Positions 6,001 to 45,127 of a stretch of DNA of 64,000 nucleotides are shown in pieces. How positions within the stretch are numbered: the stretch's first letter is position 1; each line of letters begins with the position of its first letter. Source of the stretch: a virus; the IMG/VR virus record IMGVR_UViG_3300049783_001607. One strand, written 5' to 3'. The position numbers and the translations under genes were made by a program. The notes under the pieces are model-generated. The model did no database searches. It had not been told where the DNA came from and worked only from the letters and a program-made list of their open reading frames with translations.

Positions 6001-6526
6001 GCTGTTTAAAGTCAAAGCGTTAAAAGCAAGTAAACCTGTAAGAGGGGTTATAAACTTTGGCAACGGGGCTTATTCTGCTTTAGTAGAGCAGGACACAGAT
6101 TATGGTGCTTATAGAGTTATTATTACTAAAAATGATTCCAATACTAAAATGCTTGTAGCTGATAATTCAGTAAGCGTGTTCAAAGTAAAAACAAATGACG
6201 AAAAAGTTTCAACTACAGATAAAATAGGTATTTCAGGAAACTTAAAAGCACTCGAATTAAATATAATAAATACAGCGGCTTTTAAATCTATTGAAGTTGC
6301 TAAATTAAAAGGTACCTTAATAGTTGTAGAAGCTAAAAATAACACTAATTTAGTATATTTTAAACAAGGAAGCAATTCCACTAATGAAATATATAAAGAA
6401 TTAGTTAATACAAAAGGACCTCTAGGACTTTCTAAGACTACCTTTAATGTTAATAATGATACTTATGAAGAATTAATGAGTATTATAGAAAAAGATAAAT
6501 CAGAGTTTATTAATAAATCTTGTTAA
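2..6526 (+). CDS. Virion-packaged DNA-dependent RNA polymerase (crAss-like, phi14:2 gp66-type); 5'-truncated by the window edge
   Basis: Catalytic DxDxD motif GGDLDID (nt 2219-2239) preceded by RIPGQSKQS (from nt 2111); frame is open from nt 2, so the ATG at 62 is probably internal; size >2170 aa. Confidence 0.9.
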   Translation, partial: VTTTFEYDKFRQVLQKKSVQMPFSEEQMKKLGSMELYNTLKLLNTSIPFTKRRMSFLSPLASGRTITEEFNNLQELYEYVTDHESYKIGSEKAWDLILDILRQNPENLYNFVGTLTVPSNQKTGHKKFNKFSDVFTNKPNKDLDVNIDYMANEFNFEILSKAHEYDVSGKLHEASSLTLLSQLVNAVSFGGLSNLTSKNLQNAMMSKMMLNRVRIGKDLAQIARDLHPTEEWTKKLVARLEKGDVSTEGYSPEEQALYREVMRLGVHEMARLAFQKSDSALMGKLIKGTDIIVNEDGLEIEGDEIVYSLDSPQIRAKVLGTLRSSFFKDTVKMKMSGFIGTVSAAHKVITMFTAPGQLRTGRQGYIKAVFLNNFKAKPSTDETTYIELLSVVGAEKIINEYLMPQDLVEIRTKGVKTSQPVLRPLYSVDLKALAADPNKEVLVVVTPDLKEEPLLDINKFNALDSNALINIDGKTIYKWYLQELYNTTESINALFDKYVLEENIVEKYNLRWMDVVKVSSPDDGIKTIKDTEAFKNYYRLSFSSKTTEKQLEGARAEMILETQSKDQDGDSMWKVVQAEVVLPTYIKSQFNIPSGTSLSEIIGTDSGNQRINATKWFAARHKRRTKIYNKHVDTTKRIYANISAKKGVEYAEDMLTYLESFNDDDLLNPEAIKVIKAKMEKIELEEIDFKASNFLKTLETALTRIPGQSKQSGFIGNVVEFLDAQGNATFAATEHLVNTGGDLDIDTLSVLTKTVGKSGAIEDHTIFIKDDGGFNNDDMLVSYEKEVKDVKNRVKKGVAQLNVEASKYIEKRAYKKKTNTSSERAERLEEQYQRAVKIFIDPAKEKELVEAAVKRVHEKYENIISNAIADGVFRALDNPSTAVELNTPISMGMFFPIMDRLAKLDTTTKTRYSGENYTAIFQYENLAAQGKEAIGIYATVLKINSAIQAAKINFDYNYKNKLGRQQSNPFNFVHSITYTNTEGEQTLKPRNGFADLDRFPIMQSIEKYGPLQNALKNIIGRTSTFDSTTVNTLVALLEDSVVKSLQIESNRHKALDLLQKQALGEITGQNIDNEAIKDFRDRIDNHAFVMEESEAAELFELFNEDINSSQGRGKIISVLNDTIVDLNEISFTDRQNAVNTVLTLFDIELPVEVAESDNIIAAFTSFLKKEGNEKLISKAFINVMGKQLSNDVQSQFLSAATDNAKALILGKIKSNSLTNPVITTMLLLGYDTDVIIDFLYDPKIVKVFDYFLKQKSKLQRTRVTSREIKLSKLDMSSDSVRSLIDILDISERVTKFRALRSLNENAQIEQYKLDKILFDVASVDKKGKIPGSHILYKAIIDDDISVLSKLKGAEGLIFDTASLIFLHPQSRSLFMSIYESENFKLPAVSNVVGELRKMIDSKSGGMEAYKNINSYISKMQVVMFLNRRDEDGKVYKFGNVVKLHEDGSYTTSKVPLNNPDKRAEFVENFGDYLNKTLKDIAQIKVDNPKFLLGDNAALSSLGYMKIFGASKPVFGFPKLKNDSVDNIDVALIFEGIKELQIGTDIEELDIKHSELYRNLSLYALIVSAGEIKKGTMIEVYEDLNLELSKFVKSMTIEDYEKFRVTDELTIRILQNRVPTEEELKKEKELNDAKLGYGEEDQLDPAEFYSGEEDTQVSEEDIETGENEEEFDIPVSYNYSYKRVVYSPLVLDKQFKGTMSNIGQVFKSVDPYLKGSLFYAPKYNEIAYRLFPSNAAETLPNTFNQAAFTKEGIKIPDSIANTLTLIGLQVGFSSIYNGQEIRIMGFAGNKRPENASSYADYYIVLTRDGLKEIAGAHLMKYNDDLLLQGNIIEEVSSTNIGNLDNLKDIYLDTIQEISDIPINVGKVIDKDIKSLYNNEDIINDSILSQEFEMAGIKDILKIDDKNLLKNTLSYSKYYSQDVFPTASFGSKEIMIPSFNSAVDGGKLLKGSIMKELMFKAMNRLNDLDKGESITFYGIKANTEFRKKSKETLVGGIDTLLQLFKVKALKASKPVRGVINFGNGAYSALVEQDTDYGAYRVIITKNDSNTKMLVADNSVSVFKVKTNDEKVSTTDKIGISGNLKALELNIINTAAFKSIEVAKLKGTLIVVEAKNNTNLVYFKQGSNSTNEIYKELVNTKGPLGLSKTTFNVNNDTYEELMSIIEKDKSEFINKSC

Positions 6527-9500
6527 ATATGAAGTGCGCTATATCAGTAAATATAAATAAAGGAACGGCTTTAAATGAAGTAAAAATGTATGGGGCTAAA
6601 AGTGTTCTAGATCTATCAGAAGTTAAGGTAGATAAAAACACTTTAAATTCTAAAATGTCGTTTCCTAGAAATACTAAATTAGCTAAAAATCCTGATTTAT
6701 TCAATAAAGGGGCTAGTTATATATTCTCTAATTCTGGAAAATTTATAGCCGATGATTTTAAAGCTTTGAACGTATTGAAGGACCCTAAAATTTTATCTGA
6801 ACTGGTATCAAGTGGCTCTAATTTATATAAAGGCATAGCGGAAGAGTTTTTTAAAAGAAAAAAAGACAGTCTTATTAGTAATACACCAAACAATACTTCT
6901 AATTATGTTATTAATAATTTACAAGGCAAACCGGTGCCTAGCAGTAATAGTAGAACTTATTTAACTATAACTAGAGAAGATTTAGCTAAAGCTAGAAAAA
7001 TAGTTAATAAAGAATTTAATAAAGTGGATGATCCGTATTTATTAGAAGCTACTAGAATATTTAATGAAGGACTAGAGTTTTTAATTATTTCAAGTCTTTA
7101 TAGAGGTTTTGATGTTGTTATAGAAGGCCCTATAGAAAGTACAATAGTAGATAAAGCTATAAATAAATACAATGTTAAATTAGGGTCTAAAAAAGACGTT
7201 ACTAAACTGACTACAGATAATATATTTTCAGGAGGTGCTAAAGTTTTAAATCCGGTTGCTCACATAGCTATAGAGGAGGCATATAAAAAAAATAAATTTA
7301 AAGGGTCTATTATAAATACTAGTAATTTAGTATTGAATATGTTTACAACTAAAAACGAGCGTAAAACTTTAGAAAAGCATAAAAAAGCTTCTACTAATTC
7401 TAGAATTTTAGTAGCTAATAGAATTATCAAAGTATTTAAAAATATTATACCTAATCTAGAATCTGAAATATTATCTACTTATGAAATTGCAATGATATAT
7501 GGCGATACTTTCGCTAATAAAAAAGGTTTTATAATCGGTAATAAAATTATACTTAACGCAGATACATTTTCTATGGACACAGTGTTTCATGAGTTCAGTC
7601 ATTATTATTCTGCCTGGCTTAAAGAAGACAACCCTGAGATGTTTTCAAAATTAATGGAAGTCACTGAAGAAAAACATGCGGATCTTATCTCTGGGTATAC
7701 AACTATGTATGAAAATACAGGACTTAAATTTAGTAAGAATGATATTATAGAAGAAATTTTTGCTGATCAAATAGGTATGAAAGCCGCTAAGGAATTAGAT
7801 CAAGCTATGGATGAATATGTAGACGATTCTTTTGAAGAAACTATAGATAAATTTTCTCAAGCTTTTCTTATTAAATTAACAGGTAATTCTAAAGCTTTAT
7901 TAAATAAATCAGGGTTAACACTTGATAGTACAATAGCTGACGTATTTAATATAGGGATTCTATATGCAGGTGAAAATACTTCAGAATTGTTAGAAAGAAT
8001 TTCTAGTGACGAGATAAATAGATTTAAAGATTTTTTTATAGATAAATACTCAGTAAGAGAAGTATATAACGGATTAGTAAATAGAGGTTTAATTACATTT
8101 GCAGGAAACAATAAAATAGTCCTTAGAGATATAAATGGTAATAGATACGATGAAAATGGAGTATTATCTAAAAACTCTAATAAGACAGTGACTTTTAAAC
8201 CTTGGGATACTTATGATAATATTAAATACAACAATAAAAAGTTAGATGAAATAACTGGGTATTTAAACAGATTTAAAAATTACGCGTCTGTAATGTTTTC
8301 TATAAAAAATACTGCTCATGAAGTTCAAGATATAATACAAAATCATTCTAATAACATTACTCTTGATATCATATTAAATAAATATAAAGACACTAATAAT
8401 AATATTTTTAATAGAACCACAGAGTACATTACTGATGAATTTACAGATGGTAAAGCTACAGAAGATTATATAGTTCTTAAAGTATACAATGAAAGAATAA
8501 CAGCTTATATTGAAAAAGAGCTTGCAAAAGAAGGTGTTGAAGATACGGTAGAACTTAGAGAAGCAGCAAAAGAATATGCTTTAGAGTATATAACTAGTCC
8601 TACATTTGCCAACTCGTTTAAAAAATCATATAATAAAGTAGGTGAATTATTTAAATTTAAAACAGAGGAAGGTACATATTTGCACACATTAGCTGAGCTT
8701 TATTTTAGAACTCTTAATTTTAGTAATAAAATACAATATAATACCAAAAGAGAAGGAGGTTTTATGCATTTTGCTAAAGGTATCTCTGAAGCTATTGGTT
8801 CTACTGATGTAGCAGAATTTGAAAAATATTTTGAAACTAATTTTTTTAATGAATTACAAGGACAAGAAGGTTCTCCAGAATATAAATCTTTTCTTGACGC
8901 ATATAATTTTATAAAAGAAACCAAGATAAAAAGAGATGTAAAATCTATTGCGGCATCTGCTAAATTTATAGCGTTGTTAGAAAAAGAAGTTATTCCACAT
9001 ATATTAGATCTTCCTGGTCCAATAGTACTTATGCCCGAAGTTAAATTATCTAGCAAATCTTTTGGTGTAGCAGGAACAATAGATTTAATAGTAATTGACG
9101 GTACTGGAAAAGCTAGAATATTTGATTTTAAAACTAAAGAAGAAAATAAACGACCTTTTTGGAATTACTCTAGGCATTTAAGAAGATTAAAAGGGGTTAT
9201 GTCAGGTTATTCAGACAATGCCATGATAAAAGCTAGTATTCAAACATCCATGTATAAAGTTATGCTTAAAGAAATGGGTATTGAAGTAGTAGGTTCAAAA
9301 ATATTTTACGTGGAAAGTTCTTTACAAAGTTCTGTACATACAGATGATCAGTTTGCAAAAGCAGAACAAATGCATTACAACCCTAAAAATATTTTTATAG
9401 AAGGTGTTCAAGATGTTTCAGCTGAACTTTTAGATCATTTTAAAAAAGAAGGTAAAGAAAGCGAGTTATTTACAGAAGTAAATTTACAAACTGCCGTATC

Positions 9501-12500
9501 AAATGCTATAATAACAGCTTCGGGAGGTATTAATATAGATGTAGACGATAATTTAGAAGCTAAAGCAAAAGGTATTTATGAAAGAGCTCTTAGAGATTTG
9601 AGTAAAATTAAAAACGGCTCCGTTGCAAGTAAAGCAGAAATAGATATTCTTAGCCAATTTAATTTAAGTAGAGGTTCAAAAGTCAGTGATAAAAATACAG
9701 GATTAAAAGTATTTTTAGGAGGTAGATTAACTGAAACTTTAGAGGCTGGTGTAATGGGTGATGACGCTATTCAAGCTATTGTAGACCTTCTTAAAAATAG
9801 AAAAGCGGTTAGAAATATGGCCAGCTCTTTAGAAACTGTGTTTAATTCTATGGACAGAAGTTCTAATGAATCAGAAGATTCCGGTTTATCTAGGGATTTA
9901 GATTCTGCTTTTAGAGGAGTTCTAGCTGACACTGATTCTACTACTCATGAATTAACTAGACTCGCTTCTAATATAAATTATGGTTTAGACTTTAGTGATG
10001 TATTATTTGTAAAAAATAAAATAACGCATGAAAATAGAGTAGTAATTTTAAATCACGATCGATCTAAACTATTACCTTTCGGCCCAGGACATAACAATAT
10101 TTTTGGTAAATATTTATCTAATAATGGCGCAAGAATAGCTTTACCCACAATAAATTGGAAAGGTACTAATCATAATATGAGACTTGTTAAAGCGGGCATA
10201 ATGATGGCTTTACAAAAATCTATAGATCCTTCTTTTAACGTTAATTTAATAGTATCTAATAAAGCTGAAGGCCAAGAAAATACTAATATGTCTGTACCTA
10301 ATTTATATGATATGAGTACTTTGTTATTAGTAACTAAAACTTTGTTAATTAATATGAAAGCTGCTGGAGAAGTGTTGCCTCCTGAAATTGAAGCTTTGTT
10401 AGATACTCCAAGTTTATTTGATTCTAAAAATTATATGGCTAATCCTATAACAGCTTTAAGCGAGTTTTTAAGTATGGCTACTGGAGATCTTGTTAAATCT
10501 AAAGATGTATATTTTGGTACTGGACTTAAACGTAAGAACGAGTTGATAAAAGTACTGGATAACTATCGGGGCAGACAAGATACTCAAGGTCTTATAGATT
10601 CTCTTTTAAATTTTCAGAAATCTGTAGAATATAAGCTTAAAACTGATGATGATAAATTAAGAAGTGACTTATGGACTTTATTAGATCATGTAATAATGGA
10701 TTTAATGGGACTTAATTATGCTATGAGCCCTAAAAATACTACTTTTAGTAATAATTTTTTAGGGACTACATCTAAAATGTCAAATCATTTAGGATCGTTT
10801 TTTAACAGGAAAATAGCAGCCAGTCAAACAGCAGAAAAAGAAGCGTTTATTGAATATAGAAATGAGCATGCTGTATGGCTGAATAAATTAGCTGAAGAAA
10901 AAGGAATTAGTCTAACAGGAGGTAGATCTTTATATATGGATAGTATGAAGTCAATTTTTAAAAATCTTTGGTCTACTGATAACAAAGACAGAGAGACAGC
11001 TTTTGTTTTAAAGAACTACAAAACAGGAGCTAATTTATCTTCTTTAGAACGAAAATATTTAAAATATCTTGAGGAAGTTTTTACAAAATTTGGAAATCAA
11101 TCCTCTTTTAGTAAAATAGAAATCCCTGCAGGATGGTCCCCTTTAGTTAAAAAATCTAAACTTAGTTATAGAAATGATACGTCGGCTTTTGAGAGAGCTA
11201 GAAAAACTGTAAAAGATTTGAATTTTAATCGTGCAATGAAAGATGAGGATAATATTTCTCCAATAGAGTCTGAATTTGCTGTAGAATCAAAGTTTAAAGG
11301 GCAATTACCTAATAGCAAATCTCATAAAGAAGAGCAGTTTTCAGATTCTAGAAGGAGTTTATTAGGTTTAGATAGTAATATGATTCCTTTTAATAATGTT
11401 GAGGATAATCATCCACTTGACATGTTAGAAGATAACGTAGAAAATATAGTAGACGCTTTTGTATCAGCTTCTTTAGATGCTTACCACTACAGAGAAATAT
11501 CAGCTTTTGGTAGATCTTTATATTATAATATAAAAAGATATGAGAGAGTAAGTAAATTACCTTATCATAAAATAATTGAAACAATTTCTCTTATACAAAA
11601 AAGAGTAATCAACCATGAAGAATCGGATGCCAATAATAAAGTAATGAATGTTGTAGATGGGTTTGCCACTAATGCAGCGATTGCAGGTACTGTTGGTCAA
11701 GCATTATTAGAGACATTTACTAACCCGTTAGTAACTACAGCTCATTACGTTTCTGATAAATTATATGGTACTCTATTTAAAGGTACTAGAGAATTTAGTC
11801 TTAAAAGTTATACTACCGCTGTTGGAATGGTTACAGGCGGTAATACAGAAACTAAATCTCTTATCAGAGCTATAGATAGTTTATATGGAATATCTAATTC
11901 AGATACTAGGGCTTTAAAGCAAATGCTTAAAATGATTGAAGGAAGAAGTTTATTTCAAAGCAGTAAGCTTATGTTTATTAATAAAATTATGATGCAAACA
12001 TGGCAAAAAGTAACTTTAGTAGCTTATATGTTAGAGCAAGGTACTTTTTTTGCTCATAGTCTTGATTCAGTAGGTAATCTTGTATACGATGAATCTAAAG
12101 ATAAAAGATTTAAAACTAAGGAGGGTAAAAAATTATACAGTGCTGTAAAACTAGAGCTTTCAAAACAAAAAAACGGGTTGACAGGTAACTCTACTGATGA
12201 ATATGAAGATAGAAAACTTAACAAAGCATGGACTGTATTTGATAGTAATCATGTAAAAGAATTAATAGTTGAGTTATACTCGTCTTTAGATGATACGTCT
12301 AAATCTCTTTCTATGTACTATACTTGGATGCAATTCATGATTAAATTTAGATCTTGGATATTTTCTAAAGTACCTAGATATTTTCAAAAACCCTTAACCG
12401 CAGAAGAAAATGAATCTGCTGGAAGACCTACTAAAGTATTGGATCCTAATGAAGAAGATGGTTATAGAATAGAATTTAAAGGAGAAGCTACTGAAGGAAT

Positions 12501-12984
12501 TTTATATACTTTAGTATCTATATCTAAACAACTCGCGGAATATAAATTACAGGTATTTAAAAAAGGATCTCTTACCCCCAAACAAAAAAAGAATATGTCT
12601 TTGTTAATGGGCGATGTTATAGTATCTACTACTATGGCAGCAGCGGCATCTGGAATATTTGCTCTTGCGTTTGATGACGATGATAAAATACCTAAGGTAG
12701 TTTTAATTGCAAAAGACAGATGGGATATGGCTTCATCAGATGTTGTTTTTATAAAATCTTTGGCAGATATAACTACAGGGAATTCTTCTATGTTTATAGG
12801 TGTTTCTATAGCTGCTAGAGCAGTAAAAGCTGCTTTTGATGCTGCTGTTATATTTCCTGTAGCATTAACTAATCCCGAAGTAGGTGTTAGCGATGTTCTT
12901 AGCGCACAAAATAAATTAATGGGTAGTTTAGCTGGGTGGTATAAATCTGTAGAGCTCGTGTACGATACTATAGAGTCAGAGTAA
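6520..12984 (+). CDS. Giant virion/ejection protein with zincin-like metallopeptidase, PD-(D/E)xK nuclease and C-terminal hydrophobic helices
   Basis: HEFSH (7588-7602) plus downstream EEIFAD; EEGTYLH and GTIDLIVIDGTGKARIFDFKT nuclease motifs; adjacent to the vRNAP as in crAss-like phages. Confidence 0.75.
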   Translation: MLNMKCAISVNINKGTALNEVKMYGAKSVLDLSEVKVDKNTLNSKMSFPRNTKLAKNPDLFNKGASYIFSNSGKFIADDFKALNVLKDPKILSELVSSGSNLYKGIAEEFFKRKKDSLISNTPNNTSNYVINNLQGKPVPSSNSRTYLTITREDLAKARKIVNKEFNKVDDPYLLEATRIFNEGLEFLIISSLYRGFDVVIEGPIESTIVDKAINKYNVKLGSKKDVTKLTTDNIFSGGAKVLNPVAHIAIEEAYKKNKFKGSIINTSNLVLNMFTTKNERKTLEKHKKASTNSRILVANRIIKVFKNIIPNLESEILSTYEIAMIYGDTFANKKGFIIGNKIILNADTFSMDTVFHEFSHYYSAWLKEDNPEMFSKLMEVTEEKHADLISGYTTMYENTGLKFSKNDIIEEIFADQIGMKAAKELDQAMDEYVDDSFEETIDKFSQAFLIKLTGNSKALLNKSGLTLDSTIADVFNIGILYAGENTSELLERISSDEINRFKDFFIDKYSVREVYNGLVNRGLITFAGNNKIVLRDINGNRYDENGVLSKNSNKTVTFKPWDTYDNIKYNNKKLDEITGYLNRFKNYASVMFSIKNTAHEVQDIIQNHSNNITLDIILNKYKDTNNNIFNRTTEYITDEFTDGKATEDYIVLKVYNERITAYIEKELAKEGVEDTVELREAAKEYALEYITSPTFANSFKKSYNKVGELFKFKTEEGTYLHTLAELYFRTLNFSNKIQYNTKREGGFMHFAKGISEAIGSTDVAEFEKYFETNFFNELQGQEGSPEYKSFLDAYNFIKETKIKRDVKSIAASAKFIALLEKEVIPHILDLPGPIVLMPEVKLSSKSFGVAGTIDLIVIDGTGKARIFDFKTKEENKRPFWNYSRHLRRLKGVMSGYSDNAMIKASIQTSMYKVMLKEMGIEVVGSKIFYVESSLQSSVHTDDQFAKAEQMHYNPKNIFIEGVQDVSAELLDHFKKEGKESELFTEVNLQTAVSNAIITASGGINIDVDDNLEAKAKGIYERALRDLSKIKNGSVASKAEIDILSQFNLSRGSKVSDKNTGLKVFLGGRLTETLEAGVMGDDAIQAIVDLLKNRKAVRNMASSLETVFNSMDRSSNESEDSGLSRDLDSAFRGVLADTDSTTHELTRLASNINYGLDFSDVLFVKNKITHENRVVILNHDRSKLLPFGPGHNNIFGKYLSNNGARIALPTINWKGTNHNMRLVKAGIMMALQKSIDPSFNVNLIVSNKAEGQENTNMSVPNLYDMSTLLLVTKTLLINMKAAGEVLPPEIEALLDTPSLFDSKNYMANPITALSEFLSMATGDLVKSKDVYFGTGLKRKNELIKVLDNYRGRQDTQGLIDSLLNFQKSVEYKLKTDDDKLRSDLWTLLDHVIMDLMGLNYAMSPKNTTFSNNFLGTTSKMSNHLGSFFNRKIAASQTAEKEAFIEYRNEHAVWLNKLAEEKGISLTGGRSLYMDSMKSIFKNLWSTDNKDRETAFVLKNYKTGANLSSLERKYLKYLEEVFTKFGNQSSFSKIEIPAGWSPLVKKSKLSYRNDTSAFERARKTVKDLNFNRAMKDEDNISPIESEFAVESKFKGQLPNSKSHKEEQFSDSRRSLLGLDSNMIPFNNVEDNHPLDMLEDNVENIVDAFVSASLDAYHYREISAFGRSLYYNIKRYERVSKLPYHKIIETISLIQKRVINHEESDANNKVMNVVDGFATNAAIAGTVGQALLETFTNPLVTTAHYVSDKLYGTLFKGTREFSLKSYTTAVGMVTGGNTETKSLIRAIDSLYGISNSDTRALKQMLKMIEGRSLFQSSKLMFINKIMMQTWQKVTLVAYMLEQGTFFAHSLDSVGNLVYDESKDKRFKTKEGKKLYSAVKLELSKQKNGLTGNSTDEYEDRKLNKAWTVFDSNHVKELIVELYSSLDDTSKSLSMYYTWMQFMIKFRSWIFSKVPRYFQKPLTAEENESAGRPTKVLDPNEEDGYRIEFKGEATEGILYTLVSISKQLAEYKLQVFKKGSLTPKQKKNMSLLMGDVIVSTTMAAAASGIFALAFDDDDKIPKVVLIAKDRWDMASSDVVFIKSLADITTGNSSMFIGVSIAARAVKAAFDAAVIFPVALTNPEVGVSDVLSAQNKLMGSLAGWYKSVELVYDTIESE

Positions 12985-15003: not shown

Positions 15004-15588
15004 TTAATATTTATTGTATTTAAATGTTAATACTAATTTTCTATCCTCTTCTTTTTCCACAAATTCATATCCGTAACTAGTTTTCATTCTAAATTGGGGG
15101 CTGTCATCTCTTAAAATACCTTCATTAACTATAGTGTCTTCTAGCATTTTAGAAAGTATCCACATATTAGTAATGTCTGGTGTATGTCTAGAATATGTGT
15201 CATACATCTTTAACTCCATATCAAGTTTATAGGATAAAAATACTGGAAACTGTTCTTTAAACTGTTCTTTCACGTACTTAGCAAAATATTTATGGTAAAA
15301 ATTTACTACTGTAGAACGTTGTTTCCAAGTTATATTATTACTATAAAAAGATTGGCCATTAAGATTCCAATATTCAGGATTACCCATTTTAGTCGGGTTT
15401 TTTATTACTTTTCTACCTCTCTCGTCTACATAGTAAGTTTTCTTACCTATTTTTTTCGTGTTAAAATTTTTATATTTTTCAGGTATTTTATCTCCTTTAG
15501 TATAATACGTAGTTATAACAGTTCCAACCCTAACTTTTTTGACCCAATCAGGAATAACTAAAGTAAAAATTGATTTTTCTGTTATCAT
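15004..15588 (-). CDS. RusA-like Holliday junction resolvase
   Basis: PDITNMWILSKMLEDTIVNEGILRDDS resembles the RusA PDxDN...K...D...G...DD motif. Confidence 0.7.
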   Translation of the reverse strand: MITEKSIFTLVIPDWVKKVRVGTVITTYYTKGDKIPEKYKNFNTKKIGKKTYYVDERGRKVIKNPTKMGNPEYWNLNGQSFYSNNITWKQRSTVVNFYHKYFAKYVKEQFKEQFPVFLSYKLDMELKMYDTYSRHTPDITNMWILSKMLEDTIVNEGILRDDSPQFRMKTSYGYEFVEKEEDRKLVLTFKYNKY

Positions 15589-18704: not shown

Positions 18705-19442
18705 TTAATTATTTTCTTTTAATGCCCCGTCCTCATCAACTGTATAAGGGTCTGATGATACATCTAACATCTCAGTTGTTTCATAAATACCCATGAAAAT
18801 ATCCGCTGCATATAGTCTTAGCGCTTCTGTAATACACCTAGTTCTAAGCATTAAAATAGGTCTTTTAATGTAATTATCTCTACCTTCTAACCCAGCTTTT
18901 TTAATTTCACTCCATCTTTTACTAAATCTATGGACTTTAACAGCGTTATTATATTCTTTGTATTTACGTGTAATTTCAACAGTGGTAATTATATCAGTTA
19001 GCTTCTTATCTTTATTGTATATTCGTACATAATCTTCCACTACATCTACTAAAATATTATTTTTTAGAGCTAATCCTAAATACATATGTACACCGATAAC
19101 TACTTTACCTTTAACAACATGCATACCATTTAAAGCTACCCATGGTGATATGTTTAATTCTCTTCCGTATTCTACAATAGCTATTACAGCTCCGATAGCT
19201 TTTTTACGGTATTCGTCGTCTTCAAGATGATCTGGTGTAGCTAGGGTTTCAGGTAACAAGCCTGATTGAATCATTTCTACAGCAAACATTTTTTTTTCGT
19301 CCATTGAAGTTGCCATATCAATTGAATTGGATATTTGTCTAGGAGTTAGCGGTTTCATTACAACTAATTCATGTTTAATATCCGTAGTTTCTTCATCGAA
19401 TTTTTTAGCCTCTTTTGAATTGTCTTTTTGTTTTTTATCCAT
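18705..19442 (-). CDS. RecT/Redbeta-like single-strand annealing protein
   Basis: YGRELNISPWVALNGMHVVKGK and NYIKRPILMLRTRCITEALRLYAADIFMGIY patterns. Confidence 0.75.
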   Translation of the reverse strand: MDKKQKDNSKEAKKFDEETTDIKHELVVMKPLTPRQISNSIDMATSMDEKKMFAVEMIQSGLLPETLATPDHLEDDEYRKKAIGAVIAIVEYGRELNISPWVALNGMHVVKGKVVIGVHMYLGLALKNNILVDVVEDYVRIYNKDKKLTDIITTVEITRKYKEYNNAVKVHRFSKRWSEIKKAGLEGRDNYIKRPILMLRTRCITEALRLYAADIFMGIYETTEMLDVSSDPYTVDEDGALKENN

Positions 19443-36495: not shown

Positions 36496-36876
36496 TTATA
36501 TGTGACTCCATTCACCGTACTTTTTAGAAAGTTTATCTAACTGTTCTAATTCGATTCTCTTAATTCTGTCTTGCTCTTTTTTTTGCTCTTCCTCCTCCCG
36601 CTTTTTATAACGTAATTTTTCTTTTTCACAGGCATTTTCATACTCTTGTTTTGTTATCAAACCTAATTCAAGTAAAGTAGGTTCTGTTTCGTCTTTACTA
36701 TATTGATTTAAATTAACCTCTTCTCTTTTATGTCCAAAACTTTCTGTAATATCATTCACTATAAAAACAGCAAAAGTATTGTCAGAGAATTTAACCCAAA
36801 GATCACCAAAATACATTTTTGTATCGGCTATTGTTTTTCCTTTTAAGCCTTTTAAATTTGTTATTTCATTTTTCAT
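36496..36876 (-). CDS. Hypothetical protein
   Basis: 126-aa ORF with a coiled-coil-like tail. Confidence 0.55.
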   Translation of the reverse strand: MKNEITNLKGLKGKTIADTKMYFGDLWVKFSDNTFAVFIVNDITESFGHKREEVNLNQYSKDETEPTLLELGLITKQEYENACEKEKLRYKKREEEEQKKEQDRIKRIELEQLDKLSKKYGEWSHI

Positions 36877-36904
36877 TTTAATATAGTTTTGTTATTAATT
36901 AAAA

Positions 36905-36967
36905 ACTGCAACTAACACTATGCAAAGTGCATTAAAACGCACCTTGCACTTGATTGTTCTAAACAAT
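36905..36967 (+). repeat. Complete short attC-like hairpin site
   Basis: ACTAAC-acta-TGCAAAGTGC-attaaaac-GCACCTTGCA-cttgatt-GTT; 9/10 stem with asymmetric 4/7-nt spacers. Confidence 0.6.
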
Positions 36968-37276
36968 AAAAGGGCTTTCATTCATTGCTTTTGTGTAGTA
37001 CTTGCAAAGTTGTTTGTGTGTAAACTCTCTTTTTCCATCTTTAGAAACCCATTGGTAAACTTTTGGTCTGTACTTAAAAAATTTCTCTATATAATCATTA
37101 AAGGCTTGTGTGTACTTATCGCCCTTTAACTGTGTAGAACAATGTGTAAAATCAATGGCTTTATCTCGCCTATCTATAAGAGTTTGTACCATATTAAATA
37201 TTCTTATTTCATTAACACCGCTATCAAATATATGCTGTATCTCTACTTTTAAGTCTGTCTTTTCTTGTTCTGTCAT
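36959..37276 (-). CDS. Hypothetical protein that translates through an attC-like left arm (AIDFTHCSTQL)
   Basis: 105-aa ORF; its start codon lies inside the loop of the 37128-37336 hairpin. Confidence 0.55.
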   Translation of the reverse strand: MTEQEKTDLKVEIQHIFDSGVNEIRIFNMVQTLIDRRDKAIDFTHCSTQLKGDKYTQAFNDYIEKFFKYRPKVYQWVSKDGKREFTHKQLCKYYTKAMNESPFIV

Positions 37277-37336
37277 TATCTATTTTGTTTAGTTATTAAT
37301 TCACGCCACTAATCTTACACTCAACGTTACCTTCAA
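37128..37336 (+). repeat. Long-loop attC-like site
   Basis: AAC-aat-GTGTAAAATCAATGGC pairs 13/16 with GCCACTAATCTTACAC-tcaac-GTT across a ~145-nt loop. Confidence 0.6.
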
Positions 37337-37338
37337 TA

Positions 37339-37650
37339 CTACTTTAGTACATCATAAGCACTTTTAAAGTAGCTTGGTTTTACAGGCCAGCAATGTTTAC
37401 CTAATTCTTTTGTATATCCAAATACGATATAATCACCGATACTTGCTATTTGTGTTTCACCGCCAATTTCAGGTGTTTTAAGTTTCAGGCCTTCACGTTT
37501 CACAATATTTTCGTAATCATCCCATTTATCGGATGCTATGTTATGTGATAAATCAGGCTTACTAAATACTTCTGTGTAAACCTCAAAAATGTTGTTTTCT
37601 TTTAGCTGAATAAATTCAATTATTACAGGCTTCTTTTGTGCTTTTTCCAT
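37339..37650 (-). CDS. Conserved small phage protein (KKPV...GDYIV...PVKP family)
   Basis: KKPVIIEFIQ, ASIGDYIV, WPVKPSYFKSAY. Confidence 0.6.
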   Translation of the reverse strand: MEKAQKKPVIIEFIQLKENNIFEVYTEVFSKPDLSHNIASDKWDDYENIVKREGLKLKTPEIGGETQIASIGDYIVFGYTKELGKHCWPVKPSYFKSAYDVLK

Positions 37651-37668
37651 CCGATTAATTTATTTGGT

Positions 37669-37976
37669 TTCATAATTTATAAAGGTTTATTAAATCTGCC
37701 TAAAAAGCATACTATATCATTAATTAGAAATAACTCATATTAAAATCCCCTTTTTTAAATGTTTTCTGCATTTCTAATTTTTCTCGCCAGCCTTTTCCGT
37801 ATTTTTTATTTATTTCACATCTTGCTTTTCCGTGATAGTCTTTTACTCCTTGCAACTTTAGGTTTTTAGATAAAGTTTTTAACTCTTTGCTTATATCTTT
37901 TTGTTTTTTTTCTATTTCTTTATTATTCATAATTTATAGAAGTTTATTAAATCTACCTAAAAAGCATACTATTTCA
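37669..37976. repeat. 51-bp direct repeat (47/51 identical) flanking ORF 37724-37930
   Basis: 37669-37719 versus 37926-37976. Confidence 0.85.
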
Positions 37977-38494
37977 CAATCTAATGTCCCATTACATAAA
38001 AGCTTTTTAATAGCTGGATTTTCATCTTTATGCAAAGAACTTACTATTTTTTTAACTCGTCTATTGCTTAAAGAAGTGTCTTGATATTTCAAACCGCATT
38101 TTGTTTTCCAATCAAATAATATTTTATTGTTATTTTTATTTCTATAAACAAACTTCACTTCATACCAGTAATATTTTTTAGACAGCACTTTGTATAATAA
38201 GGCGTACATCATATTTGCTTCTCTATTTTTGCCTAAGTACTCTATTAATTTATTCATTTGTTTTTATTTATTTAATTACTATTTATCTCTCCAATTTTTA
38301 ATTTTTCTCTTTTCATTTTAACTTCATTCTCAAAGTTTATAAAAAAATCAATTAAATTTTTATCGTCATCATCTGTTTCTAAAGCTTCAATTAATAAGTC
38401 TTTAGTATTTTTAAGTAAAAAAGGGATGTATGATTTTGTTATTATATTTTCTGTTATTTTGCTCATCTTATATTAGTGACTTTATGTGCAATGA

Positions 38495-38938
38495 CTACAT
38501 TTCGTTTTGAGAAAACTTATCTCCTAATAACTCTAGTCTTTGTCCTAATACTTGCAAATACTCATTCATTAATCTTGATTGTGTATAAAGTAAATCTTTG
38601 TTTACTCTATCTAAATCAACGAAATTTTTAGTGCGCATAAAATCGTTTAAAGAGTTTGTTTTAGTCGCTAATTCTCTAGTTTGATTTAGTAATCTATCAT
38701 AAAAAGTTTCAGATTGCTTGTAAATTTTATCAAAAACATCTTTTGGACTCCAAGAAATATAGCCATCGTGGTTTTTGTGGTTAGGTTTTCCACTTTCGAT
38801 ATATTCAACTAACATACCATCTTCGTTACTATCCTCATTAGATGGCTGCTCCCATCCTCTATAAGAATTGTACTCTTCTTTTTTCATGGATACAGCTTTT
38901 AAAGTCTTTGTCCCTGTGTAATTAATCATTCCTTTCAT
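38495..38938 (-). CDS. Conserved phage protein (crAss001_48-like, YISWSPKDVF family)
   Basis: YTGTKTLKA, GYISWSPKDVF, QSRLMNEYLQVLGQR. Confidence 0.65.
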   Translation of the reverse strand: MKGMINYTGTKTLKAVSMKKEEYNSYRGWEQPSNEDSNEDGMLVEYIESGKPNHKNHDGYISWSPKDVFDKIYKQSETFYDRLLNQTRELATKTNSLNDFMRTKNFVDLDRVNKDLLYTQSRLMNEYLQVLGQRLELLGDKFSQNEM

Positions 38939-39570
38939 TATGTAAAATTTAAAATATTTGCTTACTCTATTTTAAGGTTTTCAGCTTATCCTTTAATTTA
39001 ATAATTCGTCAAATCTACGCTTAACGGTAGTTCATAAACTTGAAATTCACTGAATGTTTCAGTTTTTCTATCTTCATCCGTATAACCACTCAAACCAATT
39101 TCATTATATTTTCCATGAGGAAATAGTTTTATAAAAGTTACTTCGTGAATACAATCTTTTCTTTCGTTTAGGTCGGTGTGATTTTCAATTTCAGAAACAA
39201 AATCTCCTACTTTTAATTTTTTTACATTTACTGACATAATAGTTTCAGTTTTTTTTTATTTTAAATTAACATTATCATAAGAAATTTTAGGAGTAAACTT
39301 AAAATCTTCAGATAGCCAATATTCCCACATCTCATCATCAGTTATAAGACCTTCTTTTCCAAGCTTTTTTATTATACTGGATTTTTCTTGTGTTATATTG
39401 TTTATAGTTTCATTAGAGTATATTTGTTCTATCGATTTTGTTTCTATAGGACCTATCATTTTTTTAACAATTTTAGTTCTATTTATTAACATTTCATCAA
39501 TGGTGTTTAATCTTTTTAAAATATAATTTATTTCCATAATCTACTTCTTTTTAATTAAATAATTCAATTT

Positions 39571-39598
39571 TAACTAACACGTAATATAAAACATACAC
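39571..39598 (+). repeat. attC-like left half-site
   Basis: AACTAACACGTAATATAAAACATAC matches the YAACA-n-TAAA consensus of the other sites. Confidence 0.4.
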
Positions 39599-39977
39599 TC
39601 ATTTAGTTCTGTGGTCTAAACAATCATTTCCGTATATTTCAGTAGGTATATTTCCACAAACCTTACATTTAATTACAAAGTATTTAGAACCAAATATCCT
39701 TGCTAATAATCTTGTAATTGGGCCATAAAATAATACGTTTTCGGGTCTGCTATAATATTTTGCTTTCATAATTATATTTTTTAGTTTAATAATATTAAGT
39801 AAATTAACTTCTACCCAAGTTGGTTAACACGCCATGAGCGGTTTTTACTATCTCGCCAAATACTCCTACAATTAAGTGTGTTTATTTCATCACCCCACAC
39901 ATTACCAATAAAAGAAAAGCCACGCTCTCTTGCTTCTTCAATGTCAATGCTTATAAATAATTGTCTATACTTATCAC

Positions 39978-40011
39978 GCACAGAATACAACAATGTATAA
40001 AATGCATTGCT
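39978..40011 (+). repeat. attC-like left half-site translated inside ORF 39811-40038 (SNAFYTLLYSV)
   Basis: TACAACAATGTATAAAATGCATTGC. Confidence 0.55.
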
Positions 40012-40461
40012 TTTTGTTTTTTGCCAATATTCAGCCATAATTTTAATTTTAGTTTTATTGAATTATTTTTTTCATATCATTGTCTTTATTTTAAAAATTA
40101 TTCAGTTTCCCAATAAATCCTACTGCTTGTCCAAGGATATATGACTCTTGCTTGTTTTTTATTACATTTTATACATTTTCTTTCACTTGGTATTGTTTCT
40201 CTCCATTTGTGTAATCCTATAAAACATTTAATTCTATCAATCATAATTCTCTATTTTTCGCATTTATAACAATCTTCACCTACTTCACCATTTTCTGTTA
40301 TTAAATAACCTGTTAATGAAACGCATATTAGTCCCAACTTTTCATATAATATTCTAAGTCACTATGTATAAACCCATCATTATTTTTATTTCTGTGTTTT
40401 TCTCGTAAAGCTCCTTCGTATATTCCTTCTTCGTATGCACTTTTCATATTTTCAAAAGAAT

Positions 40462-40496
40462 AACTATTTTTAACACCTGATAAAAGTAATTGCTCG
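40462..40496 (+). repeat. attC-like left half-site translated inside ORF 40328-40615 (EQLLLSGVKNS)
   Basis: TTTAACACCTGATAAAAGTAATTGCTCG. Confidence 0.55.
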
Positions 40497-40617
40497 GTTT
40501 GGTAACTGTCTAATAATTCAACTAATTCCTCAAAAGTAAAGGACTGCCTAAAATTAGGGTGTTTAACTTTTTTGCCATTACTGTACTTGTCTATTAAGTA
40601 TTTTTTATTGTCCATTT

Positions 40618-41016
40618 TTATTTAATTTTAACTTTGTCAACAACGTATATACTCCCTGTAATTGTTACGTCATTTAAACTTTTAGTGCCGATATCTCTAA
40701 TTTCTCCTTTTAAATTAGCTCCTGTAGAAGATTCAACATCATCTAATATTTTATACGCTAAACATTTACCTTTTTCATTCCAAACAATCTCTCTATTTTT
40801 ACCTACGTAACCGTCATTAACAAAAACAGTATCTCCTATAAATACTTTAACTTTGTTTATATCTTCAAAACCTGCATATTGCCTAGTGTAAATAAGATTT
40901 AAACTATCCCATACATCACACCTGTGCTTTATTTTTGGTATTTCAGAAATATGGTATTGTTTTTTTACTATTCCGTTTACACTTTCAAATCCGTACTCAA
41001 ATATATTTTCGTTCAT
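40618..41016 (-). CDS. YopX-family protein
   Basis: RQYAGFEDINKVKVFIGDTV and ITGSIY resemble the YopX pattern. Confidence 0.65.
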   Translation of the reverse strand: MNENIFEYGFESVNGIVKKQYHISEIPKIKHRCDVWDSLNLIYTRQYAGFEDINKVKVFIGDTVFVNDGYVGKNREIVWNEKGKCLAYKILDDVESSTGANLKGEIRDIGTKSLNDVTITGSIYVVDKVKIK

Positions 41017-42326
41017 AATTATATTTTTAGTTTGATAATACTAAGTAAATTAACTTCTACCTAAAGTCCAATTAATCCACCTTTCTTGTTGTGTTAATGG
41101 CTTCGGTTCAAATCGTTTTCCGTAATCATTTAAAACTTTTGTGGCTTGGTCAGGAGTTGCTTTATAAGCGTTTTTATATCCCTCTTTTATTATTTTAAAT
41201 AATTGCTCGTCTTGTCTCTTTTCAGAAGAACAATCTATTACAGTTGGTGAATTGTTTTTGTGTAATTTATATACTATGCAATGAGTTATTTTTTTCATTT
41301 TGTTTAATTAATAATTATTTACTAGTCAAAAATATTATTCAACTTTATTAATATCCTCAAAGTGTGTTTTTAGAACTTTCATAGCATTATCAAAGTTTTT
41401 GTCTACTGTATTAACTTCATCTTTATATTCAGAAGAACTATCATCGTATAAGATAGTCCATCCGTTCTCACCAGATTGTATTGTTACTACTAATTGGCTC
41501 GTACCAACTTTAAATAATTCTTTTCTTTTTACCTCACTTGAAGGCATCATTCCCATAAATCTATCCATACTTTTAAATTTAATTTGTTTTATTATTGCCT
41601 TTTAATTCTGTATACTTTGTTTTATCTAATTGTTTATATGCAGTTGGGACATAGCTCTAACGCTTGTTTTAACCCTTTTTCTAAAGCCTCTTCATAAATA
41701 TATTTAATCAAACTAATTGATGGTATTTTATTAAAATATTCATCTTGAAAAAGGGTGTAACATTGCCATCCTGTTTGTTTTTCTCCCATTTTATCATCTC
41801 CATAAACAGGTTTTAAACACAAGTTTATATTTTTTGTTTCTCTCAACCATTTTTGTAAATAACTTTGAGAAGGCCTTATGTAAAGTGATTGTTTGCTATG
41901 CATATACCCTTTTTTCTTTGCTAAATTAAATACTTTAAGCGTAACTAATTTGTCGTTTGTATCCGTAGTTTTTTGTATCGTATTTTTAGTATGTGTATTG
42001 CTTATCTTGTGTTTTTTATCGTCTGTATTCATACTTTTTAATTTAATTTGTTTTTTAGTTGGTATTTAAAATATTCATTGCCATCACCATCTATAAATAT
42101 TATTTCATAGTATCCAGTCCACACTGTACCGCCTAACATATTTTTAATATTAAATATTTTATTACCTCTTCTAGTTCTTTTTGGCGAAAATATTTTTTTA
42201 TCTTCTGTTAAGTATGTTTTATTTAAAGCTATTTTCATATTATTGTCTTTTAATTCTTTCCATTCCGTTACAACCTAAACATTGCGTACCGCATCTCAAA
42301 CCATTTGATTCCTCAGAATGACAATA

Positions 42327-42569
42327 AAACGGTTTAACAACATCAGGTAAAGTCAATGCTATTTTATAGTCTTCGAATACACATAGCGCTGTACCCCAGA
42401 ATCTATCAACTCCATTGCTGTCTCTATCGTGGCTTGGGTTTCTTTTATCCCATAAGTTTTGTAATAACTTCTGTTTTTGTTCTTCAGTTCTTTCCATTTT
42501 TGTATCTTAATTAACTTAGTTGCTTTTTAAATATCGCAACGAAACTTTATATCATATGTTAGTAGCAAT
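42327..42569 (+). repeat. Long-loop attC-like site enclosing the start of ORF 42240-42497
   Basis: Left arm AACAACATCAGGTAAAGTCAATGC (42336-42359); right arm GCAACGAAACTTTATATCATATGTTAGTAGCAAT (42536-42569); pairing only partial. Confidence 0.5.
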
Positions 42570-42599
42570 AATTTTTTAGCCGCCTACACGTGCCAATCA

Positions 42600-43199
42600 T
42601 TACGCTTTAAACTCGTGGTTTATTGGTAATGTAATTCTATACATAACTCTATGTATGTCTTTATCTAAAGGCAAACTTTCGTGTATAAATTGCGAGTTTC
42701 CATAATAAACTTTATTTGCATCAAGTTTAAATCCTTTCCCTAATTCAATGTGTCTACAATCTCCACCTATTCCAGCGTTGCCCTTAAAATCACCATTCCA
42801 TCCTTTAGAAGAAGAATAATTTGAAGCAATTAACATCCCGCCTTTTTCATTTTCATAAGATAATTTATGTTCAATTGTATTTAATTGGTTTCCATTTTCG
42901 CCAATCTTCCATCCATTCCCTCCGCCGTCAGAACCCCATTTTAAAGATTCTAAAAAGTTGCCGTCAATATGTGGCGAACCACGTCTTAAAGTATTTGCTT
43001 TTTTAACAAACTTTCCGTGTACAGTTAAAAATGCTTCACCTATTTTGTTAGGTAAGTTTTTAATCATTTCTTTTGCCGTCTCTCTAAATTCTATAGGCAA
43101 TGTCATTAAGTTGCTTAAATCAAATGCTAGCATACTTGTCTCTCCATTGTAAAAAGGTATTTCAATACTATTCATTTTTTTTGATATACTTGTAATCAT
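42600..43199 (-). CDS. Putative 2OG-Fe(II) oxygenase-fold protein
   Basis: RRGSPHIDG (HxD), distal HESLP and a C-terminal R..YR; phage dioxygenase-like. Confidence 0.6.
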   Translation of the reverse strand: MITSISKKMNSIEIPFYNGETSMLAFDLSNLMTLPIEFRETAKEMIKNLPNKIGEAFLTVHGKFVKKANTLRRGSPHIDGNFLESLKWGSDGGGNGWKIGENGNQLNTIEHKLSYENEKGGMLIASNYSSSKGWNGDFKGNAGIGGDCRHIELGKGFKLDANKVYYGNSQFIHESLPLDKDIHRVMYRITLPINHEFKA

Positions 43200-43371
43200 A
43201 ATTTATGCATTTATTAATTTCTTGTTTTTTTATTAATTAATTCTTGGTCTAGGGCATTGTAAAATTCTTCATCTAGGTATTTTTTATTTATTCTTTTAAC
43301 ACAGCTTAAAGGTATGTCATAAGCCTCTGCCGTTTCTTTTAGTATTCCAATTGATCTAGTCATAATTAAAA

Positions 43372-43474
43372 GTGCCTAACAATAGCTAAAATTAATAACG
43401 TTAATAGGTCTTTGTTTTTTATTTTGGTTAGCAATTAAAGGCTACTAATTTTAGCCTTGGGCGTTTTAAGTAAT
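43372..43474 (+). repeat. Complete attC-like site with a canonical RYYYAAC inverse core
   Basis: GCCTAAC-aata-GCTAAAATTAATAAC ... GCTACTAATTTTAGC-cttgggc-GTT; 13/15 stem, 4/7-nt spacers. Confidence 0.65.
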
Positions 43475-43733
43475 TAAACGTTATAAACAAATAAAATTAT
43501 TTCCACATTCTTTCAAACCAAGTTGTGTACTTAACATTAAAATCAGTATCTAACAAAATTGCAGGTTCAGTGTAATTTGTTTTCTTCCAACCCTCTTTTA
43601 AAAGGGTTTTTTCAACTTTTCTGTATTCTTTTTGGTTTTCTAAAGTCCAGTTTATTTTAAATGATGTTTTTACCATGATTTTTTAGTTATTAAATCGTTT
43701 TACGCATATACAAATAATTAAAAACATTAAACG

Positions 43734-44132
43734 CTATTGTTTATGTCTACTTTCACCGCTTATATGAATTTCTCTATCTTTAGGCGGTGTCGGTGGTAAA
43801 GGTTTGTTTTTGCTAACAAACGCATCCCAATAACTGACGTGCTTAGTAATAACATTGCCACCGCCGCAGCAGTAGACATTTCTCTCTTGGCATCCATTAG
43901 GCTCAAGCTCTTTATCACAAAGTTCTTTGACAATAAATACCTTATCATCTTTAAACCAATCTTTTTGACACACGTTATGCGTCCCACCAGAAAAGTCACC
44001 TTCTAATTCAATTTCATTTTGACGTATTCCTACCACTTTAAATGGTTCTTTTCCTTGATAAACATCTTCAATATAAACAGGGTACATATTAAGTATTTTA
44101 TACCCTTTAATCGGTAATTTTTTGTATTTCAT
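43734..44132 (-). CDS. Hypothetical protein
   Basis: 132-aa ORF with ELEGDFSGGTHNVCQKDW. Confidence 0.55.
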   Translation of the reverse strand: MKYKKLPIKGYKILNMYPVYIEDVYQGKEPFKVVGIRQNEIELEGDFSGGTHNVCQKDWFKDDKVFIVKELCDKELEPNGCQERNVYCCGGGNVITKHVSYWDAFVSKNKPLPPTPPKDREIHISGESRHKQ

Positions 44133-44376
44133 TTAGCGTTATTTAATAGCGTTAATTTTATCTGTGATTTGTTAACATTAATTAATGCTTTATTGTAGCC
44201 TTCTATCCAACATTCTCTATATTGTTCGTTTTCATCCCATAGTTCAGGGTTATCACCTACTGTCACCAACTTTTCAGGGTAGGCTTCTAATGCTAATTTC
44301 TGTATATCTATCATAATTTATTAATTTAAGTCGCACTACTAATACTACCACAAAAACAAACTAACTGTTTTTTTGT

Positions 44377-44646
44377 CGTACAACATTATGTAAATTTAAT
44401 TGCTCGACTACGTAGTTATCTAGTAACTTTTCCATGTCATTTACAATCATGATGCATTCGATACGTTTATCTGTTTTATCAAGTTCCTGTGCTAATTTAA
44501 GAAGTTTAAGTATTATTTCTTTATGTGCCATTCAATTAAAGTATTTTAATATTTGTTAGCATAGTAATTTTATCACAGCACTATGAATATCCATCACATT
44601 AGAGTGCATTAAAACGCACAATAACATTATGTATAGGTAATATTAC
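44377..44646 (+). repeat. Two attC-like left arms and a degenerate right arm
   Basis: TACAACATTATGTAAATTTAATTGCTCG (44379-44406); AATAACATTATGTATAGG (44620-44637); 17-mer AGTGCATTAAAACGCAC at 44603-44619 is identical to 36926-36942. Confidence 0.55.
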
Positions 44647-45127
44647 CCTTTCTTTAGTGCTTCTAATTGTCTGTGTAAATCAAGTATTACTTTTTCTTCA
44701 TTAGTTAAAGGGTCTTGACTTGCTGTATCTGGTTCAAGTCTTGCCACATACACAGACCCGTCCGTTAGTTCAATAAATATTGCGTTCATAATTATATTTT
44801 TAGTTGTTTAATTAAATTTACAACTTTACGCAAGAATATAATTTTTTCACTTCTATAAGGTGTTATTGTTTTACCAAGCTTTGTATTTGTTGCTTGTTTT
44901 AATTCGCTTTTTGCCCAATTTAGCAAATCAAGTGTATTTTTTGTAGATGCCAAAAGCGCTTTATTTTTTAAAATTAATTCTTGATTTGCGTATTCTTGCA
45001 TTTGTATTGTTATCCAATCATCATTTATTGTTTCATGTGAATCCCATTTATCTCCTCTCATTTGAGGATATTTATCTTGTAAAAATTTTTTTGCTGACAT
45101 TATTTGATGTTTTATTTATAAAAGATT

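Follow-up and report, generated by a model that had tools for sequence, protein, structure and literature searches.

In a stretch of viral DNA 64,000 nucleotides (nt) long (IMG/VR record IMGVR_UViG_3300049783_001607; hereafter the window, numbered from its first letter), five small minus-strand open reading frames (ORFs) carry inside their coding sequence one arm of a recombination-like site of the kind found in integron gene cassettes. On the reading that we prefer, at a probability of roughly 0.62, these genes would belong to a decaying integron-like cassette array in which whole cassettes move at an untranslated AAC core, and in which the protein halves before and after the arm (here the head and the tail) are also exchanged at the translated arm when a recombinase uses the second strand of the site. 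Comparison of sequences identifies natural chimeric relatives that break at the arm for four of the five ORFs, and for three of these the chimeras are reciprocal.

Chimeric relatives of the arm-bearing genes

The tail of ORF 36959-37276 has ten homologues with other heads, which fall into at least eight head families, and its head is found on five other tails. In P0013, P0014, P0015 and the cultured Tenacibaculum phage JQ the head of ORF 42240-42497 continues into unrelated tails; in P0016 its tail lies under a different head. The head of ORF 40328-40615 is present on another tail in P0018 and in L029, the latter being nearly identical to the window up to the GTT that ends the arm and unrelated from the following base; a tail related to that of this ORF stands under a different short head in LR756500.1, and likewise under another head in L032. 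The head of ORF 44361-44531 has thirteen homologues of 71-101 amino acids, in which it runs into longer, mostly unrelated tails. No chimera was found for ORF 39811-40038, which is intact over the arm in all four homologues that span it (L034, L035, L036 and Cellulophaga phage Nekkels_1); gp102 of phi4:1 lacks the front of this ORF, but its match begins 12 residues past the core and it was not counted. A preliminary description, made from the letters of the window, had proposed that N- and C-terminal modules are shuffled at these motifs, and homology does break at the motif in four of the five ORFs rather than being conserved over their full length.

The position of the breaks is not uniform along the proteins. 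Among 32 partial homologues the protein change-point falls from 9 codons before to 4 codons after the core in 21, against 5.7 expected if uniform (the method is not applicable to ORF 44361-44531, whose tail is too short). Differences between heads and differences between tails both favour third codon positions, which suggests that both halves are translated.

The translated arms and their partner sites

A frame-blind DNA pattern gathered 120 viral contigs, and the training of weight matrices for both arms used 214 cassette bodies of independent viral contigs, at loci unrelated to the homologue searches for the window; the seed pattern was designed from arms of the window and its homologues, so that the model is independent in its training sites and not in its seed. 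On the gene (minus) strand each of the five arms is about 24 nt long and ends in a GTT core, the G of which lies at plus-strand positions 37140, 39991, 40474, 42341 and 44384; all five related peptides named in the preliminary description were located within the minus-strand ORFs to which it had assigned them. The five arms are ranks 1 to 5 of all window sites on both strands (25.3, 24.0, 21.4, 19.2 and 18.8 bits). Six sites of at least 16 bits lie in the region 36800-44700, against a mean of 0.017 (maximum 1) in 300 dinucleotide shuffles, and two lie in the remaining 120 kb of window sequence (both strands). Four complete arm pairs are present (cores 37328/37140, 42560/42341, 43465/43380 and 36958/36916), and all arms of the window share one orientation. 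The features are as follows.

36907-36965, minus: short complete untranslated attC-like site, cores 36958 and 36916; abuts the stop codon of ORF 36959-37276
36959-37276, minus: ORF of 105 amino acids, 45-codon head and 60-codon tail; AAC arm 37328, GTT core 37140, closing AAC 36958
37138-37161, minus: translated GTT arm, phase 1, core inside Cys46; 24.0 bits
37300-37328, minus: partner AAC arm, 19.7 bits, the best of its kind in the window; 52 nt upstream of start codon 37276
39811-40038, minus: ORF of 75 amino acids, 15-codon head
39989-40012, minus: translated GTT arm, phase 2; 25.3 bits; orphan, with no scoring partner on either side
40328-40615, minus: ORF of 95 amino acids, 47-codon head and 48-codon tail
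40472-40495, minus: translated GTT arm, phase 0 (Val48); 21.4 bits; orphan, downstream AAC 40314 scoring -1.7 bits
42240-42497, minus: ORF of 85 amino acids, 52-codon head and 33-codon Cys-rich tail
42339-42361, minus: translated GTT arm, phase 0 (Val53); 18.8 bits
42532-42560, minus: partner AAC arm, 11.1 bits; 63 nt upstream of start codon 42497; 8 Watson-Crick and 2 G:T pairs
43371-43472, minus: complete untranslated attC-like site, cores 43465 and 43380; 9.4 and 17.8 bits; 13 Watson-Crick and 2 G:T pairs
44361-44531, minus: ORF of 56 amino acids, 49-codon head and 7-codon stub past the core
44382-44405, minus: translated GTT arm, phase 0 (Val50); 19.2 bits
44598-44646, minus: untranslated GTT arm, core 44625; 11.1 bits; followed by a nearly empty body

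The only scoring partner AAC arms upstream of a start codon are 37328 (ORF 36959-37276) and 42560 (ORF 42240-42497), the two cases in which the preliminary description had seen a partner right arm just upstream of the start of the same gene; candidate arms 42269, 40314, 39825 and 44557 were rejected on matrix score. ORF 36959-37276 is the sole complete cassette unit among the five. Its translated arm pairs with arm 37328 through 11 Watson-Crick and 3 G:T pairs, the homology of L158 to the window starts at the AAC of arm 37328, and the homology of L159 and L030 stops at the AAC of the short site 36907-36965, which itself folds (z -3.6). The plus strand of arm 42532-42560 matches the right arm of Flavobacteriaceae sites. 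Site 43371-43472 is an addition to the sites of the preliminary description. Homologue L034 of ORF 39811-40038 retains both AAC arms and complementary flanks, and the partner-arm candidate 44557 of ORF 44361-44531 (-1.6 bits) looks decayed relative to homologue L157, which has an intact-looking partner arm. The closing AAC of the nearly empty body after core 44625 appears to have mutated. We note that an identical small palindrome of 16 nt is present in this body (44605-44620) and in the loop of the short complete site (about 36926-36941), and that the contigs of run X5 have a break at 36914-36942.

A cassette family of bacteria and phages

The reverse complement of the translated arm recovers many Flavobacteriaceae genomes, and the arm is the reversed left arm of complete attC-like sites in Flavobacteriaceae chromosomal cassette arrays. 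At 69 of the bacterial sites a gene ends just before the arm on the same strand, at 7 the gene is antisense, and 54 are unassigned; these arrays are often downstream of a tyrosine recombinase of 280-405 amino acids. The phage arrays have the same sites with the genes reversed relative to the bacterial arrangement, and on the gene strand a site has the AAC arm first, then the loop and then the GTT arm. In 225 of 381 units (120 loci) the flank behind GTT is complementary, at 6-7 of 7 positions, to the flank that precedes the following AAC, against 7 units when the two flanks are taken from the same site, as is expected of cassette bodies; an earlier unselected pairing gave 125 versus 4 of 182 sites. 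The start codon is within the loop at 101 of 182 sites (55%) of related arrays and at 140 of 301 unseeded sites, and arms co-vary with their own partners (10.8 versus 7.5 pairs), across long heads as well.

A recombinase of 267-271 amino acids directly abuts the array in five related contigs, with the terminal arm 55-300 nt from its start; the window has no equivalent. Array-adjacent enzymes score 92-156 bits (phage) and 203-211 bits (bacterial) on TIGR02249, the cut-off of which is 265, and in place of 85 residues of IntI4 the enzyme of L337 has 37. By these comparisons the array-adjacent recombinase of related phages is a short, Xer-like enzyme that lacks the IntI insertion, and is not IntI. 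In the Flavobacteriaceae loci (L218, L232, L277, L282, L311 and others of L214-L333) uniform attC-like sites lie downstream of a co-oriented tyrosine recombinase of 280-405 amino acids that is under the IntI cut-off, and we found no description of such chromosomal arrays in the literature. On the JGI 3300045300 contig that encodes P0023, an array with a tail homologue of ORF 36959-37276 ends at a methyltransferase gene and a gene for a 273-amino-acid integrase-family protein, just before terminase.

The crossover core

The preliminary description had placed the crossover that joins N- and C-terminal modules at the translated core; the exchange of heads and tails at the arm is real, but this core is not the main crossover, and cassettes move whole at the untranslated AAC. 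Eleven pairs (5 cassette families) share both head and tail and have different neighbours on both sides; all eleven break at the downstream AAC and six break cleanly at the upstream AAC too, and the AAC core is therefore where entire genes are moved, each together with the loop in which it starts. G:T pairs average 2.1 on the gene strand and 0.4 on the other. The recombining strand of attC likewise carries more G:T pairs (1.24 versus 0.39) and is cut in its AAC, and recombination of the top strand cuts in the other R box (PMC5027507), which corresponds to the translated core here.

On average over 39 swapped pairs, the arm goes with the head (17.3 of 19 positions identical, against a background of 11.1) and the flank goes with the tail (5.9 of 7, against 2.6). 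The tails of L042/L159 and of L174/L177 are 97-99% identical and begin exactly at GTT, with arms only 9 and 11 of 19 alike. From such dissimilar arms above tails that start at GTT, and from the arm following the head, we infer that site-specific splicing probably takes place.

Reading frame across the core

The G of the core is at codon position 1 in ORFs 40328-40615, 42240-42497 and 44361-44531 (Val), at position 2 in ORF 36959-37276 (Cys) and at position 3 in ORF 39811-40038 (Leu), giving 3/1/1 for phases 0/1/2, and 6 of the 20 ordered head-tail swaps among the five would be in frame; the earlier statement that the frame differs among the five cases, and that only some swaps would be in frame, is thus borne out. 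In related phages the core frame is non-random, with unseeded translated arms in phases 0/1/2 at 95/26/19 against about 51/42/48 expected from stop-codon content, the sites being not fully independent. A count of 40/1/14 from the first search pattern was discarded because the last base of that pattern disfavours phase 1. Among swapped pairs with both members translated, 27 of 28 agree in phase, where 51% of random pairs do, and selection and ascertainment both push this way. Where a locus has at least three translated arms, phases are mixed in 18 of 26, so many of the possible swaps are out of frame.

Proposed mechanism and alternatives

The region would be a decaying array of the integron-like gene cassettes that Bacteroidota and their phages carry, its genes running opposite to those of the bacteria; the loop often contains the start codon and a protein head, and hence the GTT arm is translated. 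Comparison of relatives shows that cassettes normally move at the AAC core, head and tail together, and that heads and tails have also been swapped at the translated arm, nearly always between members of one frame class. The enzyme would be a tyrosine recombinase of short, Xer-like type, or a relative in the host, acting on a folded single strand; it would prefer the gene strand and cut it at AAC, and occasional use of the other strand would cut the translated core and splice halves. A minority of swaps may be made by homologous exchange within the conserved arm, and in-frame products would be kept by selection. Coding arms would be held by protein-level selection while most non-coding partner arms decay, and the half-site appearance of the five arms would follow from this.

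Several observations weigh against this reading. No tyrosine recombinase was found in the 64-kb window (part of a contig of up to 163 kb), nor in JQ, Nekkels_1, LR756500.1 or phi4:1, and only 3 of 15 near-complete array phages have one. The two long-loop sites do not fold unaided (z +0.9 to +1.7), although the covariation of the arms supports pairing; of the hairpin loop holding translation start and N-terminal module that the preliminary description had pictured, the partner arms and the start within the loop stand, but unconstrained folding does not support a hairpin for these two. No rearranged junction was seen in eight strain contigs or in the contigs of four runs, although contigs drop rare variants, so that the lack of a joint at the cores in the four runs is not evidence of absence. 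Chimeras were detected as proteins and are in frame by ascertainment, and the counts of chimera pairs are small and not fully independent. ORF 36959-37276 and L159 have different heads, and their arms (19 of 19) and the starts of their tails are identical; the closest head relatives of this pair (L158 and L198) carry the common arm variant, which puts the exchange 17 nt or more upstream of the core, close to a shared word of 8 nt. In two other pairs the head is retained with a different arm, and one of these, L159/L173, also differs in phase.

With the RecT-like gene of the window, such exceptions make homology-driven exchange a serious rival. On this view the 20-25-nt arm would simply be the only sequence common to unrelated cassette genes, phage single-strand annealing proteins would recombine in it, the site-specific recombinase would move whole cassettes only, and the chimeras would be a by-product. 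The window encodes a RecT-like annealing protein (18705-19442, minus) and a RusA-like resolvase (15004-15588, minus), most array phages are without a recombinase, the arms of same-tail pairs are more alike (13.7 of 19) than the 11.1 background, and both the swap between the window and L159 beside the shared word and the single head with arms of different phase in L159/L173 fit such a process. RecT-type homologous exchange in the arm probably contributes; as the whole explanation we consider it unlikely, with a real chance of being right, since the tails of L042/L159 and L174/L177 start exactly at GTT under dissimilar arms, L029 departs from the window at the very next base, and inter-arm pairing is maintained over long heads. 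An origin of the shared heads in cassette birth, in which heads belong to a few site families and are attached to new bodies when a cassette is made, would need no recombination of finished genes, and would agree with the excess of shared heads over shared tails (14 versus 4 families; 32 versus 7 pairs) and with the recurrence of short heads as families. Birth alone cannot give one tail under at least eight unrelated heads, or reciprocal chimeras for three window ORFs; it is contradicted as the sole cause and improbable as the general account, and may explain part of the shared-head excess.

The strong form of the preliminary description, with the translated core as principal crossover and a phage that actively shuffles its five genes, is favoured by the 55% of related-array sites with a start codon in the loop, by the dominance of phase 0 and by the commonness of chimeras. 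We judge it very improbable, because intact units move at AAC, the strand skew points to AAC, partner arms have been lost, the window has no enzyme, its strains are colinear and only 6 of 20 swaps are in frame. That the motif arose by chance in AT-rich genes, or marks an ordinary domain boundary without a recombination site, is hardly credible: two sites of at least 16 bits do occur elsewhere in the window and the proteins are short and divergent, but the shuffle control, the reading of one DNA motif in three frames as three different peptides and the non-coding state of the arm in bacteria all argue against chance, and the AlphaFold model of ORF 36959-37276 (modest confidence, pLDDT 71.5, pTM 0.49) places the arm inside a continuous helix and not in a linker. 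A bolder form of the preferred reading, a cassette array with occasional second-strand recombination, would be that recombination of the second strand of cassette sites serves the phages of Bacteroidota as a selected way to diversify proteins. The tyrosine recombinase would then splice each head to every tail that belongs to its frame class, in a three-phase viral counterpart of exon shuffling, and would supply new small proteins of the early (possibly anti-defence) kind often enough to be useful; this is a tentative and somewhat doubtful idea.

State of the array in this genome

Three of the five translated arms are orphans, and the only closed body is 37140-36958 (6 of 7 flank bases). Homologues L034, L157 and L014 keep partner arms that are lost in the window. 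Eight strain contigs of this phage are colinear, at 99.3-100% identity. The array in the window looks largely fossil, its five genes seeming to record past shuffling and mostly to be substrates no longer, and the data speak for shuffling in the past, within the gene pool of the phages, rather than for an active device in this phage. A 10-nt strain indel near 44130 fuses ORFs of 61 and 132 amino acids (43734-44314, minus) into one of 196 amino acids in strains L022, L023 and L024 and in run X9, and fused and split forms coexist in the population; it was rejected as a core rearrangement because it is not at a core.

Relation to known systems

Like integron attC arrays, the window has arms in pairs, with AAC and GTT cores and L-type boxes on the inner side; the flanks of cassette bodies complement each other, G:T pairs are more numerous on one preferred strand, and the main crossover lies in one core. 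It differs from them in that the genes face the other way, the start codon and up to about 50 codons lie in loops that reach 190-280 nt, and protein halves are frequently exchanged in frame at the other core; unlike the enzyme of complete integrons, the neighbouring enzyme of related phages lacks the IntI insertion. The contrast drawn in the preliminary description with classical integrons, in which attC is outside the ORF, holds, the phage genes running antisense to those of the bacterial arrays and continuing through one arm. Two defining features of integrons, top-strand genes that end before an attC outside the ORF and an IntI integrase, are absent here, so we do not file the system as an integron, though it is integron-cassette-like in its working. 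Integrase-less cassette clusters (CALINs) have been published in virulent phages (Qi et al. 2023, PMC9892861), and the available part of that account matches the window in an array carried by a lytic phage with no integrase nearby, and describes none of the differences just listed. Integrons are understood to shuffle whole genes, and shuffling of protein modules by attC has been proposed only for engineered sites, as synthetic attC sites inside protein-coding sequence for use in vivo (Nivina et al. 2020, PMC7439510). Those attC-type sites are also translated, but they are engineered, lie whole within the protein and are driven by IntI1, whereas here the site is natural, with one arm in the protein and the head in the loop.

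R64-type shufflons (Rci, sfx sites, PilV C-termini) attach alternative C-termini to one constant N-terminus at an in-frame site; their tyrosine recombinase does this by inverting segments between inverted double-stranded sites at one gene. The joining of protein halves by a tyrosine recombinase at a site inside the reading frame would be common to both systems; here, in contrast, the arms have one orientation, heads and tails both vary over many genes and genomes, no inversion was seen, the strains are colinear and the window holds no tyrosine recombinase. We found no description in the open literature of natural head-tail exchange at a translated arm. If true, it would be a phage route to new small proteins, would explain the half-length homologues of many Bacteroidota phage ORFs, and would permit a direct test of strand choice by a recombinase without the IntI insertion; it is testable because cultured phages (Tenacibaculum phage JQ and Cellulophaga phage Nekkels_1) have members. 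The window contributes reciprocal chimeras for three genes, a cultured-phage example, the strand-skew test and a mapped exception.

The phage and neighbouring genes

The window has a G+C content of 28% and encodes a family A DNA polymerase (its best matches among cultured phages come from crAss-like phages, with 24% identity), a helicase, a primase, an exonuclease and a sigma factor. From the family of its sites we read the source as a large lytic phage of Bacteroidota. The sequence runs that contain window DNA are ice metagenomes, and no RNA datasets are listed among them. The five arm-bearing genes sit in a block of small minus-strand genes; Pfam, PHROGs and Atlas gave no function for their products, and the related-locus search of viral contigs returned nothing for ORF 42240-42497, ORF 39811-40038, the 44361 alignment or the polymerase.

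Inside the cassette block, ORF 38495-38938 (minus, 147 amino acids) matches PF21825, a family that one Pfam copy calls crAss001_48 and another calls Sequestin, and likely encodes an anti-defence protein; a DUF805b RNA motif (RF02914; 40.2 bits, gathering score 35.6) lies just upstream of it at 38959-38994 (minus). Two neighbouring ORFs of 2154 amino acids each are found at 62-6526 and 6520-12984 (plus), the second with only a weak PD-(D/E)XK match. Direct repeats are present at gene junctions at 39778-39818 and 41024-41064 (41 nt, 93%) and at 37669-37719 and 37926-37976 (51 nt, 92%); each covers the end of one gene and the start of the next, and they are possibly another shared joint or decayed arms.

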